Source: a virus
UHGV virus genome: UHGV-0133447
DNA: 28,245 nucleotides
Reading direction: 5' to 3' (one strand)
Shown: positions 2,484 through 22,043 of the stretch, one piece after another
Layout: the number at the start of each line of letters is the position of its first letter
Position numbering within the stretch: the stretch's first letter is position 1
Notes under the pieces: model-generated
The model's input: only the letters and a program-made list of their open reading frames with translations
Told to the model about the DNA's origin: nothing
Database searches by the model: none
Made by a program: the position numbers and the translations under genes

Positions 2484-2825
2484 TCATCTGAACCAGTGAG
2501 AATTTGGATCAAGCGGAATACCGTTTTCATCGCAGCCGATTACGGTGCCGCGCTTCTCCATTCGCTGCTTCGTTGAGTCATGGTGCTGCTTACACAGCCC
2601 TTGCCAGTTCTTCCGGCTCCAGAAAAGCTTTTGCGCTTTCGCTATTGCCTGGCTGTCACCAGAGCGCAGAGCCTCTTTCAGTTTGTGCGGGATGATGTGG
2701 TCAACCACAGTGGCCGCTGTCACCCTGCCTTGCTCCTGGCACATGACGCATAAGGGGTGCGCACGAAGGAATATAAGGCGCTCACGGTCCCATTTGCTGC
2801 CGTATATGCGCGGTTCTTTGTTCAT
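2484..2825 (-). CDS. HNH endonuclease (terminase-associated type)
   Basis: 113 aa with Cys pairs (CVMCQEQG ... CKQHH) and VVDHIIPH HNH core. AAGGGG RBS. Immediately upstream of the terminase genes, as for HK97 gp74-like proteins. Confidence 0.85.
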   Translation of the reverse strand: MNKEPRIYGSKWDRERLIFLRAHPLCVMCQEQGRVTAATVVDHIIPHKLKEALRSGDSQAIAKAQKLFWSRKNWQGLCKQHHDSTKQRMEKRGTVIGCDENGIPLDPNSHWFR

Positions 2826-3191
2826 GTTATCGCCCCTTGAGCATTATCACAGGCACTCAGTGAATGCCTGCTGTAATGCCTTAGCTGGACTGTTCAGCGC
2901 TAGTATCGAATAGCGGCAGCGCTTCAGTTGCTTCCTGCACTGCTTTCATCGTCTTTGCCACCACTTCAGTCTCTGATGTGACACGGCTGTATTGCTGGAT
3001 GAATAACTGATACTTGAGCGTACTATCCTGAACAAATTCTACAGCGACCTTTGCAGCGGCAGTGTCTTAGTTCAGGGTGGAAAGTAGGTTAAGACGAATC
3101 TGCTGGGCGTCGGTGATTTCGACCATGTCGTACCTCTATGCGATGTGGGGAGCATTATCGAAGCCATTCGGCAGAATGGCTCCTGTAATGC

Positions 3192-4133: not shown

Positions 4134-4329
4134 CGCTGGCCCCTTTCGTGGCTTCTGCTTTACGTTCTGCCGCGGCGACGCTGGCGGCCGCCTTCTCTTC
4201 GGTGCGCTGCCGGCTGGCTTTCGCTTCTGCTTTACTGGTGCCTCGCGCATGGCCAATGCCGAACGCGCCAGCAATAGCGCCCAGAATGACAACCACCAGC
4301 CCCGCGATAGCTTCTATTCCCATGATCAT
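4048..4329 (-). CDS. putative inner-membrane spanin (Rz-like)
   Basis: 93 aa with N-terminal transmembrane segment (IAGLVVVILGAIAGAFGI) then a charged Ala/Glu/Lys-rich helical region. Start overlaps the endolysin stop (ATGA). The following lipoprotein ORF overlaps its 3' end. Confidence 0.45.
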   Translation of the reverse strand: MIMGIEAIAGLVVVILGAIAGAFGIGHARGTSKAEAKASRQRTEEKAAASVAAAERKAEATKGASDVEESVKRMGDDDVDRELREKFTRPGGG

Positions 4330-4955
4330 CCCACCAGTACCGATTTTGCTTTCAGGAATCGGGCGCGTCGGTCATCAATGCCGTTCTGCCCGCCGTTGAT
4401 AATCTGGGTCACGCGCACTAAATCTCCGTGGTATTTCAAACATCCGTTTGAGGTGTAAAACCAGGCTGCGCTGCGGGCCGCATTAATATATTTCTCCAAC
4501 AACTCAGGGTTGCTGACTAAATCCAGTTTCAGTGCATTACCGCACTTCATATAATTTTCGAGGAAGGTGATCCCGATAATTCCACGCCCGCGGTATTTCC
4601 AGCCATCGCCCGCAGCCTTATTGCCAAAACGATTGTTGTAGACGAGATTAGCGATCGCTCGTTGACGTTCGATCGGTAAAACCTTTTCGTAAGTTTTACG
4701 CCCCAGGGTGTTCGCCTGGTCCTGCGTGATGCGCTTTGCCTTCACAAAACCAGCCAGGCCGGCAACGCTATAGTTAAAACTTTCGACCATCTGGGTAAAT
4801 GACGTGCTTTCGTGTCCACACTGCGCTATGAACATCGCCTGATCGAGTGGAGCTGTAATGCCGAATTCTTTCATCGCAGCATCAATATGCGGAAACCAGC
4901 GCGCAGCTAACCCGGCGCTGATACCAGCCGCCCTTTGAAATTGTGATTGGTTCAT
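4326..4955 (-). CDS. endolysin, glycoside hydrolase family 19 (chitinase-like lysozyme)
   Basis: 209 aa with FIAQCGHESTSF-type motif and overall GH19 endolysin pattern (memory). Flanked by holin-like and spanin-like genes. Confidence 0.85.
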   Translation of the reverse strand: MNQSQFQRAAGISAGLAARWFPHIDAAMKEFGITAPLDQAMFIAQCGHESTSFTQMVESFNYSVAGLAGFVKAKRITQDQANTLGRKTYEKVLPIERQRAIANLVYNNRFGNKAAGDGWKYRGRGIIGITFLENYMKCGNALKLDLVSNPELLEKYINAARSAAWFYTSNGCLKYHGDLVRVTQIINGGQNGIDDRRARFLKAKSVLVG

Positions 4956-5233
4956 CAGTGCCTCAGTGCATCAACCAGTCGCGCCACATTCCCCCTGAAC
5001 CAGAGAACCGCGCCGCAGATAAGAATGTTAGCCAGCACCACCAGCCAGTGGGATGACTCGTACAGGCCAAACAGGAAACGGAAAGGGATGCTGGCATAAA
5101 CCAGCACCATGAGATAAGCCAGAACGGATATGCCCGGACGGTGTCTCGCACTACCTCGTTGGTAGAACATCAATGCCAGCACAATGACGGCGCAAATGAC
5201 TGCATTGGCCAGCGCTGAAGGATCATTTACCAC
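4955..5233 (-). CDS. holin-like small membrane protein
   Basis: 92 aa with three predicted hydrophobic segments and a basic C-terminus. Immediately upstream of the endolysin with a 1-nt start/stop overlap. Confidence 0.55.
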   Translation of the reverse strand: MVNDPSALANAVICAVIVLALMFYQRGSARHRPGISVLAYLMVLVYASIPFRFLFGLYESSHWLVVLANILICGAVLWFRGNVARLVDALRH

Positions 5234-5612
5234 TTGAACCTCCTCCCCGGAACCGGGTCAGCATATTGAACAAGCTATTTAGATCCTGGCTGTTGAGAAA
5301 CGTCAGAACTTTGATGATAAGCGCTGATATTAATACGGCTCCCAACGCATCAAGCGGACGGTCGCTGTAGCCAGTCCAGCTTGAAAGCTTGGAACCCACC
5401 AGACCGGCGCCCAGAACACCAACAATGAATGACGTCATAAAGTATGCCACCAGCTTACCGCGCGATATGTTAGCTGCCGTGGCCACGTAAAAAACCGCCC
5501 CGGCGAACGCACCAAATACCACGCCGTAATCTATTCCGGTAGCCAGACCGAACATGCTAGCCCCCATCAGGCCGCCGGCCGCAACTGAAGTACCAGAGAC
5601 AGGATCGGACAT
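5223..5612 (-). CDS. holin-like membrane protein (possible holin/antiholin partner)
   Basis: 129 aa, Gly/Ala-rich hydrophobic segments, GAGGGGG RBS. First gene of the lysis cassette. Confidence 0.55.
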   Translation of the reverse strand: MSDPVSGTSVAAGGLMGASMFGLATGIDYGVVFGAFAGAVFYVATAANISRGKLVAYFMTSFIVGVLGAGLVGSKLSSWTGYSDRPLDALGAVLISALIIKVLTFLNSQDLNSLFNMLTRFRGGGSSGK

Positions 5613-5671: not shown

Positions 5672-5854
5672 TGTGACAGCCACCAAAAATCACTGTAAAA
5701 ATATCAGGATTCACCACCCTCTCAGACGGATTTATTCTTCTTGTTCAGTCTCGTCCGCGTACGAAGCCAAGGATGTATCCAAGACCAAAACAAGAAAAAC
5801 CGAATCCCACCACGGGTAATACTGAATAAATAAAATCAGGCATAGGGAAATCTC

Positions 5855-6265
5855 ATGGAAATTATTTCAGTAATCGGAGTGATACTGACACTGCTAGGGC
5901 TCTTTATTCCGTCACTAATCAGTAACCATTCGTCACGTAAGGCAGAGTTCAGGAAGCATTCCGCACCACTGCTGGGAAAGTTGCTAAGCGAAATTGAGGC
6001 TATTGAAGGAGGCTCTTATCCATTCAGGCTTATCAGCGATGCTGATTTCAACCAGTTGCTACCTTACGCCCCGAGGCGCAGGAAAAACGCTCTCCTTGAT
6101 GCTTACACCAGTTATCTCGACGCTCATACGATGGCCACCACGAAGCACTGGCACGATGAACATCCATCCGATGGAATGCTATTTTTCCCGACGGGTTTCT
6201 CAGTCACTAATTCAGATGAGGTACTGAAGAAAATGCAACCTCTGAAAAAAGAACTCAGCAGATAG
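5855..6265 (+). CDS. hypothetical membrane-anchored protein (136 aa), moron candidate
   Basis: N-terminal hydrophobic segment IISVIGVILTLLGLFIPSLI. AGGGAAA upstream of the ATG. Opposite strand to the late operon, in visibly AT-richer DNA bracketed by the 14-bp repeats. Confidence 0.5.
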   Translation: MEIISVIGVILTLLGLFIPSLISNHSSRKAEFRKHSAPLLGKLLSEIEAIEGGSYPFRLISDADFNQLLPYAPRRRKNALLDAYTSYLDAHTMATTKHWHDEHPSDGMLFFPTGFSVTNSDEVLKKMQPLKKELSR

Positions 6266-6270
6266 TCCTT

Positions 6271-6284
6271 TAGGATGGCCGCCA
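6271..6284. repeat. 14-bp direct repeat copy 2 (taggatggccgcca)
   Basis: Exact match to 5658-5671; lies 6 nt after the stop of ORF 5855-6265. Confidence 0.7.
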
Positions 6285-6330
6285 GATGGATTAACGACAA
6301 AGCACAGAGTGAATGATGCTCTGGTGGCAC

Positions 6331-6358
6331 AAATAAAAAAGCCATGCAAATGCATGGC
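6331..6358 (-). terminator. intrinsic terminator-like hairpin (minus strand)
   Basis: Perfect palindrome gccatgca-aa-tgcatggc (6341-6358). On the minus strand it is followed by TTTTTTATTT (complement of 6331-6340). Confidence 0.5.
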
Positions 6359-6462
6359 CTTGTGGTTTGAATCCGTTATTTACAAAATGTATTCGAGACA
6401 GTATCTTTCGACTTCCGGACAAAAAAACATATACCGGGACAAAATCTAAATGTAACTGCCTT

Positions 6463-6493
6463 GCCTGCATGAAACCATGCGGGCTTTTTTTTT
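6463..6493 (+). terminator. intrinsic terminator (plus strand)
   Basis: Stem gcctgcatg/catgcgggc (one mismatch) with loop aaac, followed by nine T (6485-6493). Confidence 0.55.
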
Positions 6494-6496
6494 GGC

Positions 6497-6522
6497 CAAA
6501 GAAAAAGCCCACCGAAGTGGGC
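6497..6522 (-). terminator. intrinsic terminator (minus strand) with UUCG-type tetraloop
   Basis: Minus-strand reading ggcccac-ttcg-gtgggc followed by TTTTCTTTGG. Lies downstream of the TerB-like gene. Confidence 0.5.
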
Positions 6523-6896
6523 CTTACAGCTATCATCATTTTTTATTAGGTGTGGTGCCGGGTGCCTCCCGGTAAGTCGCCGCCAGTCCACAGACGACTC
6601 GCAATGCGCAAAAAAACATATCAGACTGGCAATGCCCCTCCGCATAGGGGGATTCACCACACGGATAATTTAGGATGTAGTCATAGGCGGCGTCAATAAC
6701 TGACACTCTGTCAAAGGCATCATTACGATGCCTTTTGCACAGTGCTAATCACTGGATCTAATAAGGGGCCAGAGCAAAGCGATTACCCCGGCTACCAGCA
6801 CGCCATCAGCCAGGATTGACATCATTTTGCTGGTGAAGTCGATAGCAACCACCAGAAACAAAAGCACCCCGGCTGCGGCCCAGCGAAGTTTACCGA

Positions 6897-7322
6897 TCAC
6901 AGGTACTGGTCCAGAGGAAGTTGCAGAGCCTGGGCAATTTTCTTCAGCTGTTTCTCTTCTTCTTCCCCGATGCCGTCGTTATCAGCTACATCAAGACACA
7001 GGCAAAGAACATCGACAGCGTCATCCGTCCCGGCAACGTCAGCCAGTTCGCGCAACGCCTGAGCGTTGGCTGAACGTGGTGATGCTTCATAGCGAGCGCG
7101 AATATTCGAACTCATCTGGGCAATTTCACCAGCAAATGGCGCGAATGCCGGGAGGGCCGAAATAGTCTTCTCCAGCACTGCAATCTCTTTTGCATCGCAG
7201 GTACCATCGGCGTATGCAATCGAGTACGCTCCCCAGACCGTGGCTTCTACGGCATCGCGGTTTTCCATTTTTTTTACTTCAACAACGGCTTTACGGGCTT
7301 TCTTTTTAAAAATACCGAACAT
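6897..7322 (-). CDS. TerB-like domain protein (tellurite-resistance TerB fold), moron candidate
   Basis: Using the ATG for MFGIFKKK...: two acidic motifs (AYADGTCDAKEIAVLEK and VADNDGIGEEEEKQLKKIAQAL) matching the TerB pattern from memory. The track ORF extends to 7403 with an alternative upstream start. Confidence 0.5.
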   Translation of the reverse strand: MFGIFKKKARKAVVEVKKMENRDAVEATVWGAYSIAYADGTCDAKEIAVLEKTISALPAFAPFAGEIAQMSSNIRARYEASPRSANAQALRELADVAGTDDAVDVLCLCLDVADNDGIGEEEEKQLKKIAQALQLPLDQYL

Positions 7323-7341
7323 AATTACGTCTCTCTTTAGT

Positions 7342-7404
7342 GGTGAGCCAACGCTCAGGGATGGTAACCACAAGGCGACGTAATACCGTCCCTCTTGGCT
7401 CACC
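7342..7404 (-). promoter_or_regulatory. long composite hairpin in the leader of the TerB-like gene
   Basis: Outer 10-bp stem ggtgagccaa (7342-7351) / ttggctcacc (7395-7404). Inner 8-bp stem agggatgg (7357-7364) / ccgtccct (7386-7393) with one wobble. Sits between the HNH-AP2 stop and the TerB-like start. Confidence 0.35.
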
Positions 7405-10063: not shown

Positions 10064-10089
10064 ATAAAAAAACCCGCTCGCTGGCGGGT
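10064..10089 (-). terminator. intrinsic terminator just downstream of the putative late promoter (tR'-like)
   Basis: Minus-strand reading acccgc-cagcga-gcgggt followed by seven T (complement of 10066-10072). Confidence 0.5.
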
Positions 10090-10127
10090 TAATCAACGTT
10101 GAACATACAAAGCCCATCGTTATAAAT

Positions 10128-10156
10128 AAAATTACACAAAAGCGGCAACTTTGCAA
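10128..10156 (-). promoter_or_regulatory. candidate late promoter (PR'-like) immediately downstream of Q
   Basis: Minus-strand TTGCAA (10151-10156), 17-nt spacer, TAATTT (10128-10133). About 40-60 nt upstream of the terminator at 10064-10089, analogous to the lambda PR'-tR' arrangement. Confidence 0.35.
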
Positions 10157-10172: not shown

Positions 10173-11003
10173 TTATGCGATATTTATCAAATCAGGCACC
10201 TTTGTCACACGTTTAAGCTGTGAGTCGGTATAACTCTCTTCCTCAAAGCATCTTGTAACCAGACTTTCATAGAAAGGTTTCCAGCTATATCGCCAGGTAC
10301 GTTCTGGCAGACCAGGCAGCTCAGAGAGCATACCCCTGTATGCATTCGAAGACTTAGGACGACTATAACCGCGGCCTTCACAACGTTTACACACTTTGTA
10401 GACAGGCACTCCCTGCAGCTCTGACTCTTTACGGTCCAGGGTTTTTCCCGTACCGCCACACTGGCATCGCTTGCTGATTTTCCCGGTGCCGCCACATTTG
10501 AAGCAAAGAACATGGTCAACCTCTTCCACCTGACGTTTTACTTCAAAATCCGAAGGTGACTGCCTGAGGTCTTTTGCCCATTGCGGTAATCTCATTGTGT
10601 AGTGGCTTTTTTCCACCATTGAGGTTTTTTTTATGAAGCCTGAACCAGAACACTTCCTGCAATCTACGCTGTCAGCTGCAGACGAGGCATAGTCGTTATA
10701 AGCGAACCGAGCTATTATCAGCATACACAGCGGGAACTTCTTCCCTGCTGCTTTTCTTATCGATCGAGGCGCTTTTGATTTTGCATATTCAGCCAACCAA
10801 CTGACGGATGCCTTTCTGTCGTGTTCGCTGATTCCAGCTTTACCCAAAAACATTGACAGGCCTATTCCTGCCTCTGCCTGTGTCATCCCCAGAGCCGCCA
10901 TTACATCTGTCACAGTAAGTTGCTCGCTGGCGGTTGCAAGACCGCTATCGGAAATATGCATTCCTTTGGGCGCAAAAAATTTGGGAATTGATTCAATATT
11001 CAT
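10173..11003 (-). CDS. late-gene antitermination protein Q-like (Cys-rich, zinc-binding type)
   Basis: Repeated Cys pairs CRKCSGSG / CFKCGGTGK / CQCGGTGK / CKRCEGRG. Position directly upstream of promoter plus terminator and adjacent to DUF968 resembles Qin-type Q (memory). ATG at 11003 has a GGAG RBS; the track's GTG at 11021 is an alternative start. Confidence 0.65.
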   Translation of the reverse strand: MNIESIPKFFAPKGMHISDSGLATASEQLTVTDVMAALGMTQAEAGIGLSMFLGKAGISEHDRKASVSWLAEYAKSKAPRSIRKAAGKKFPLCMLIIARFAYNDYASSAADSVDCRKCSGSGFIKKTSMVEKSHYTMRLPQWAKDLRQSPSDFEVKRQVEEVDHVLCFKCGGTGKISKRCQCGGTGKTLDRKESELQGVPVYKVCKRCEGRGYSRPKSSNAYRGMLSELPGLPERTWRYSWKPFYESLVTRCFEEESYTDSQLKRVTKVPDLINIA

Positions 11004-11021
11004 GCTCAGTACTCCATACAC

Positions 11022-21900: not shown

Positions 21901-22043
21901 GGCAGTGCTCTTACCGTTGTGGTGTAGCTCAAATGGATAGAGCGCCCCTTATGTGGGGAGTTGAGCACTAACCAATGTTCGCAACACAGGTTATCTCATG
22001 CGGCCGGCCGGACGTTATGCGGGTTCAAATCCCGTCACCACAG
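21901..22043 (+). ncRNA. candidate tRNA-like structured element, copy B1
   Basis: Leader ggcagtgctcttaccgttgtggt. TGTGGTG (21918-21924) pairs with CACCACA (22036-22042). D-arm-like GCTC-AAATGGATA-GAGC. T-arm-like GCGGG-TTCAAAT-CCCGT (22019-22035). About 60 extra nt between the anticodon-like region and the T-arm. No encoded CCA. Confidence 0.3.

Follow-up and report, generated by a model that had tools for sequence, protein, structure and literature searches.

Positions 6379-6493 on the plus strand of the window (the whole stretch of 28,245 nt that was analysed, UHGV-0133447, which is a Klebsiella lambdoid prophage) probably constitute an autonomous small RNA (sRNA) gene that is convergent with the sRNA gene STnc100. 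The initial annotation had proposed a possible small RNA gene here, and judged from sequence this reading is supported: the unit is non-coding, its promoter hexamers are invariant, it behaves as a discrete mosaic cassette, and it lies in a slot that holds proven sRNAs in other prophages. The candidate is unannotated, absent from Rfam and restricted to Klebsiella; the kind of element it represents, the convergent prophage sRNA of the late-leader moron slot, is already known. A specialist would hardly be surprised by it, and it opens no new category.

The unit starts with a promoter-like site, of which the initial annotation had recognized the two hexamers and their 17-nt spacing correctly but had placed them 2 nt too low (6377-6382 and 6400-6405; corrected positions in Table 1). 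The site has nine of the 12 consensus matches and a weak -10, and as a match alone it is at chance level, with four promoter-like sites found in 2 kb against 2.5 +/- 1.6 expected from shuffled sequences. The chance that such a site lies 40-150 nt upstream of a given terminator is estimated at about 7%. Terminators are mildly denser than expected in the consensus scan (six versus 2.5 +/- 1.6). The plus-strand terminator had been located exactly; its hairpin, GCCTGCATG-AAAC-CATGCGGGC, has nine pairs, six of them G-C, closed by a 4-nt loop and followed by nine T residues. Terminators for the opposite strand do lie on both sides, as had been noted. The one on the right is that of STnc100, a known sRNA, while the one on the left, here called term2, has a hairpin of ten pairs followed by TTTTTTATTTG and bounds the conserved cassette block on the left. 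The predicted 80-nt RNA has a minimum free energy of -21 kcal/mol (z = -3.1 versus shuffled sequences), and its predicted fold consists of a 5' hairpin, a 24-nt single-stranded linker and the terminator.

Table 1. Positions of the candidate sRNA unit, its neighbours and the overlapping reading frames in the window.
Feature	Position	Strand	Basis and details
-35 hexamer TTTACA	6379-6384	+	Consensus scan and sequence reading
-10 hexamer TATCTT	6402-6407	+	Consensus scan; 17-nt spacer to -35
Predicted sRNA, about 77-80 nt	6414-6493	+	Start from promoter geometry, +/- 3 nt; 3' end inside U tract
5' stem-loop	6414-6438	+	Predicted fold; 5 bp UCCGG/CCGGG, 15-nt A-rich loop
CCUUGCC, putative seed	6459-6465	+	Straddles 5' base of terminator stem; invariant in 37 variants
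Candidate intrinsic terminator	6463-6493	+	Hairpin 6463-6484, then U9 at 6485-6493
Second late-strand terminator (term2)	6328-6361	-	Hairpin 6338-6361, U tail to about 6328
STnc100 sRNA (RF02076)	6494-6691	-	Rfam; terminator hairpin 6504-6525, tail to 6494
STnc100 promoter TTGACG, 18 nt, TAAATT	6667-6696	-	Consensus scan
Lysis cassette: two holins and GH19 endolysin	5612-4326	-	
Q antiterminator	10173-11021	-	
Overlapping listed ORFs	6367-6549; 6309-6449	+	Cross terminators
Overlapping listed ORFs	6291-6539; 6376-6660	-	Cross terminators

The absence of a meaningful open reading frame between promoter and terminator holds on closer analysis: none fits inside the unit, the overlapping ones all run across terminators, and length variants of the A-runs and T-runs in homologues frameshift every one of them. 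Since no frame is contained in the unit and these indels break the frames that overlap it, the unit is non-coding. Coding for a small protein was considered and rejected, as the internal AUGs give only Met-stop or would require read-through of the terminator.

Rfam identified the right-hand neighbour as STnc100, and when positions 6100-6800 were scanned with cmscan under permissive filters, the candidate itself matched no Rfam family even at E <= 10; the proposed Rfam check thus gave a name to the neighbour and none to the candidate. L10_leader, STnc560, Leu_leader and MicC were rejected for the candidate as sub-threshold matches driven by terminators. Its sequence is not mentioned in the supplements of the Klebsiella RIP/RIL-seq paper, nor did a literature search bring up anything relevant on the candidate sequence or on sRNAs of Klebsiella prophages.

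Two of these sub-threshold matches, Leu_leader (27.9 bits, E = 0.0014) and MicC (24.8 bits), fall on the minus strand, where they could point to a functional RNA of the opposite orientation, either a longer read-through form of STnc100 or a separate sRNA that ends at the term2 hairpin. The strength of that terminator and a fold z-score of -2.1 are in keeping with such an RNA. However, both matches are far under their gathering scores of 50 and 90, respectively, and their signal comes from the terminator hairpin. The consensus scan detects no minus-strand promoter-like site between 6362 and 6493, and a minus-strand RNA would leave the strong plus-strand terminator unexplained. We therefore consider this reading extremely improbable.

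At least 135 viral contigs carry the 162-bp cassette, as do four Klebsiella phage genomes, three K. pneumoniae "plasmid" records and K. grimontii. The phages that carry it include those of carbapenemase-producing K. pneumoniae clones; ST11-VIM1phi8.2, ST974-OXA48phi18.2 and KPP5665-2 are among the carriers, and so is K. grimontii 06D021. It was seen in Klebsiella only, apart from one contig labelled as Halomonas, and sensitive blastn did not detect it in 5,426 complete E. coli genomes. The exceptional contig (L235, Halomonas elongata NODE_128, 377 bp, coverage 0.73) is 98.7% identical to the cassette and STnc100 block, and is probably assembly contamination. Neither exact-pattern scans of viral and GTDB sequences nor blastn searches of phages, plasmids and E. 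coli recovered diverged homologues. Identity among the copies is 95% or higher throughout, and because of this there is no genuine covariation among them. The degenerate pattern GTTATTTACAAB-N55-85-CTTGCC retrieved chance matches only, among the matches listed.

Within this narrow range of divergence, the distribution of substitutions is uneven. Among 37 distinct sequence variants, drawn from 128 loci, none of the 19 positions of the -35, the -10 and CCUUGCC is variable, compared with 30 of 111 positions elsewhere (27%), including five of 17 in the spacer, four of six in the discriminator, five of 15 in the hairpin loop and five of 15 upstream. With sites taken as independent and shared ancestry ignored, the chance of invariance at the 16 of those 19 positions that lie outside every search pattern is crudely 0.73^16, or about 0.007. 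The invariance of the hexamers and of CCUUGCC thus lends the candidate gene moderate support only. As for the predicted structure, the substitutions in the 5' hairpin stem (6416 C>T and 6435 C>T) preserve G-U pairs, and the A-run indels are located in the loop of this hairpin. One of the changes in the terminator stem also preserves a G-U pair, but around one third of the unique variants carry uncompensated A-C, U-U or C-U mismatches in the terminator 3' arm, and the evidence from stem substitutions is therefore mixed.

The cassette also behaves as a mosaic element. It is joined to eight different left flanks, mostly leaders of differing holin genes, and on its STnc100 side to five variants of the STnc100 body, with 13 contexts upstream of STnc100. 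Its linkage with STnc100 itself is retained in 124 of 126 copies. A minus-strand holin leader without any plus-strand gene makes up the left flank in 101 of 123 loci.

These patterns bear on the reading that there is no gene here at all, with the plus-strand terminator serving as an insulator against stray plus-strand transcription antisense to STnc100, such as might come from reverse-oriented morons, and the promoter being a chance match in AT-rich DNA. Such an account would accommodate the weak -10, the frequency of promoter-like sites, which is no higher than in shuffled sequences, and the uncompensated terminator variants; in the window, moreover, a plus-strand reading frame (5855-6265) does lie upstream. 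It is weakened because most loci have no upstream plus-strand gene to terminate, and because the hexamers are invariant despite a variable spacer and discriminator. Further points against it are that the equivalent slot elsewhere holds proven sRNA genes, and that the -35 module is conserved in the cassette of another locus, L174, described below. A mere insulator is, in our judgement, quite improbable.

The reading frame at 5855-6265, which lies between the cassette and the holin in reverse orientation, encodes 136 amino acids with a hydrophobic N-terminus and matches nothing in Pfam or PHROG. At 5673-5702 there is a promoter-like site whose -10 is of the extended type. Of 123 loci with the cassette only 13 have this frame, which therefore resembles an orphan moron.

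In lambdoid prophages, STnc100 is produced immediately upstream of the lysis genes as a short RNA that binds Hfq. It differs from the candidate in being encoded on the other strand as a separate transcript, and is best seen as its partner. In the window the match to the STnc100 model is full length (1-206) and scores 100.7 bits, above the gathering threshold of 47 (E = 4e-21), and the transcript probably starts near 6660. Among homologues the -10 of its promoter is almost invariant and the -35 is mostly TTGAAA. On the minus strand, Q is followed in order by a DNA methylase, tRNA-Thr, an HNH-AP2 protein, TerB, DUF3927, STnc100, the holins and the endolysin. Four deposited Klebsiella phages share the block 6332-6672 at 97-98% identity, located between Q and the holin gene, and on this basis STnc100 is the short leader RNA that terminates ahead of the lysis genes. 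Flanked by the STnc100 terminator and term2, the candidate lies within this lysis/late operon leader and opposes late transcription. The two sRNA units converge such that the 3' ends, at 6493 and 6494, are a few nucleotides apart and do not overlap. The predicted duplex between the two RNAs is no better than those of shuffled sequences (-35.7 versus a mean of -38.5 kcal/mol).

Several other features of this region may be recorded. The two holin-family genes are distinct (PF16931 at 5223-5612 and PF05449 at 4955-5233, both on the minus strand) and are followed by the GH19-type endolysin gene at 4326-4955 on the same strand. Directly upstream of STnc100, at 6745-7403 on the minus strand, are genes for a DUF3927/TciB-like protein of 51 amino acids and a TerB-like protein of 168 amino acids. 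In EPEC E2348/69 PasD2 is likewise preceded by a DUF3927 and TerB pair, which appears among the "PasA/PasC conserved genes" (preprint 10.64898/2026.05.13.724894). STnc100 has relatives in the Hfq-dependent sRNAs PasD1 and PasD2 (10.64898/2026.05.13.724894). The conserved 5' part of STnc100, GGUGAAUCCCCCU..GCGGAGGGGC, is common to PasD2 of EPEC (L230). A separate short unit, at about 10071-10150 on the minus strand, follows immediately after the Q gene, whose stop is at 10173. It has a promoter-like TTGCAA-16-TAATTT, read by eye only and absent from the scan calls, and is closed at 10090-10071 by a strong terminator, AACCCGCCAGCGAGCGGGT followed by T7. With this separate terminated unit beside Q, the phage may have two late-leader-like units, the second being STnc100, 3.4 kb further down. 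Elsewhere in the window, an Rfam tRNA match of 40 bits at 21918-22043 on the plus strand carries a 68-nt insertion at the anticodon region and is not called by ARAGORN; a tRNA that is disrupted or contains an intron is one possibility, and what is left of an attachment site near the end of the prophage is another.

The position convergent with STnc100 has known occupants. Convergent sRNA pairs 3' of PR' were described in eight Sakai prophages, as "convergent sRNAs in the moron site at PR'", and include the validated Hfq-dependent anti-sRNAs AgvB and AsxR, which antagonize GcvB and FnrS, respectively (Tree et al. 2014, PMC4104026). Rfam matches confirm this arrangement in two viral contigs: in L079, AgvB at 2840-2901 (minus strand) adjoins STnc100 at 2647-2839 (plus strand), and L114 is organized likewise. 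In prophage PP6 of EPEC E2348/69, the 3' end of the RIL-seq sRNA candidate E2348C_1409-1408.IGR (NC_011601:1444797) is one base from an STnc100 match (L229). This sRNA is EcOnc08/21/42 according to Pearl Mizrahi et al. 2021 (PMC8550237), and EcOnc42 has been detected in EHEC by Northern blot and Hfq-CRAC (PMC7873438). In a sample of 126 STnc100 copies from viral contigs, anchored on STnc100 alone, a convergent terminator abuts STnc100 in 27. All 27 belong to three cassette types, namely the EcOnc42 type (20), AgvB (four) and the type seen in the window (three), and in each of these types a late-strand terminator lies just upstream of the cassette's own promoter. Tandem STnc100 copies occur in some of the viral contigs, with five in L011 (2265-3380).

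The slot upstream of the holins, with its terminator/antisense sRNA cassette/terminator layout, is filled by at least three cassettes that are unrelated in sequence. That unrelated cassettes share one layout argues for selection on the architecture and not on a particular seed, and it raises the alternative that the candidate RNA is real but has its main job in cis. Being perfectly antisense to the late transcript between the two late-strand terminators, it could, along with convergent transcription, be a fail-safe that keeps read-through from the STnc100 promoter out of the holin genes in the lysogen, or an element of lysis timing, with no regulation of host genes in trans. The location of the cassette agrees with this, as it lies between two tandem late-strand terminators and, in most loci, directly upstream of the holin genes. 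Against a role confined to cis, the E. coli occupants of the slot have partners in trans that are demonstrated or supported by RIL-seq (GcvB for AgvB, FnrS for AsxR, and cfa and tir for the EPEC sRNA); a purely antisense function needs neither an invariant CCUUGCC nor a single-stranded linker; and the candidate does not overlap with terminated STnc100. As the main function of the RNA, action in cis appears unlikely, but it is a live alternative and is compatible with a role in trans.

The two roles could also be combined. The recurring layout might represent a selected "lysis safety lock" acting in cis, whereby the antisense promoter and its RNA could suppress leaky read-through into the lysis genes of lysogens. 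In addition, CCUUGCC would have been convergently retained as a host-targeting seed, which could target GGCAAGG, a conserved host motif that occurs, for instance, in the leader of cfa. On this view the cassette in Klebsiella would have solved the same dual problem independently. We regard this combination as very doubtful.

Under the preferred reading, that of an autonomous sRNA gene, host sigma-70 RNA polymerase would initiate in the lysogen about 7 nt downstream of TATCTT and stop at the U9 terminator, yielding an RNA of around 80 nt. This would consist of the 5' stem-loop, an A/U-rich single-stranded linker and the terminator hairpin with its long U tail. Such a succession of stem-loop, linker and terminator with a long U tail is the usual design of Hfq-binding RNAs, and the candidate may likewise depend on Hfq. 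By analogy with the known occupants of the slot, it would most likely act in trans, with its linker and the invariant CCUUGCC element at the foot of the terminator pairing with mRNAs or sRNAs of the host.

This putative seed has a counterpart in EPEC, where E2348C_1409-1408.IGR carries an identical CCUUGCC just 5' of its terminator, whereas the heptamer of the window extends with its last three bases into the terminator stem. The EPEC heptamer, the inferred seed of that sRNA, is complementary to GGCA(A/G)GG, the MEME motif of the RIL-seq targets of this sRNA, which include cfa, tir, emrA, pcm and yagU (PMC8550237). CCUUGCC is the sole notable element common to the candidate and the EPEC sRNA, and as it was noticed post hoc, the shared heptamer is a lead and not a test. 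In the window itself GGCARGG is not enriched (11 sites versus 8.8 expected).

A second Klebsiella-type cassette, in L174, is paired with its own copy of STnc100. It shares with the candidate the 11-mer GTTATTTACAA, which spans the -35, has CUUGCC at nearly equal spacing (72 versus 74 nt), and shows the same layout of 5' hairpin, linker and terminator built from different stem sequences (z = -4.5). This suggests that the two cassettes may form a family, with the one in L174 as the single relative. Two complete pairs of STnc100 and antisense cassette, with tRNA-Thr between them, are present at 976-2100 of L174.

Comparison with named sRNAs shows how far the analogy extends. AgvB, AsxR and EcOnc03 occupy the same slot in the same orientation, convergent with and abutting the 3' end of STnc100, and each has its own sigma-70 promoter and intrinsic terminator, an architecture that the candidate appears to share on its predicted elements. 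However, there is no covariance-model match of AgvB (RF02702), AsxR (RF02703) or Esr41 to the candidate at E <= 10 in 6100-6800; as a positive control, cmscan finds AgvB at 96.5 bits in L079 and L114. The likeness to AgvB is limited to the terminator 3' arm (15 of 17 nt, E = 0.55). The candidate is also longer, at about 80 nt predicted as compared with 51-60 nt for the anti-sRNAs, and has a predicted 5' stem-loop, which AgvB, AsxR and EcOnc03 lack. AgvB and AsxR combine a conserved 3' region of about 42 nt with a variable 5' end of 14-18 nt, a pattern different from that of the candidate, and their hosts are E. coli and not Klebsiella.

The EcOnc42/EcOnc21/EcOnc08-type sRNA likewise abuts STnc100 convergently. 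An nhmmer --max profile of six members reached a best E of 6.2 with the candidate, in the terminator tail only, and the 5' bodies are unrelated (...GCUGAAAUAUUACUUCACGUUUU... versus UCCGGACAAAAAAACAUAUACCGGG...). PasA and PasC are Hfq-dependent sRNAs encoded immediately upstream of the holin operon and directed against late transcription (Pearl Mizrahi et al. 2021; Zhu, Shabalina & Storz 2026, 10.64898/2026.05.13.724894), and are linked to PasD, a relative of STnc100, as well as to TerB and DUF3927, all of which have equivalents in the window. Between PasA and PasD2 there is an esterase gene, whereas the candidate and STnc100 abut directly, and blastn-short against the PasA and PasC loci of E2348/69 gave only scattered, non-colinear 6-10-mers.

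As none of the AgvB/AsxR, EcOnc42-type or PasA/PasC sRNAs is homologous to the candidate, the functional analogy rests on position and architecture. The cassette is a concrete candidate for experiments in Klebsiella lysogens, which would let CCUUGCC be judged as a shared seed. In pathogenic E. coli, host regulation is rewired by prophage sRNAs of this slot, AgvB acting against GcvB and AsxR against FnrS; should the cassette be expressed, Klebsiella prophages would follow the same strategy. We propose that the candidate is an analogue, in position and in architecture, of AgvB and the EcOnc42-type sRNA.
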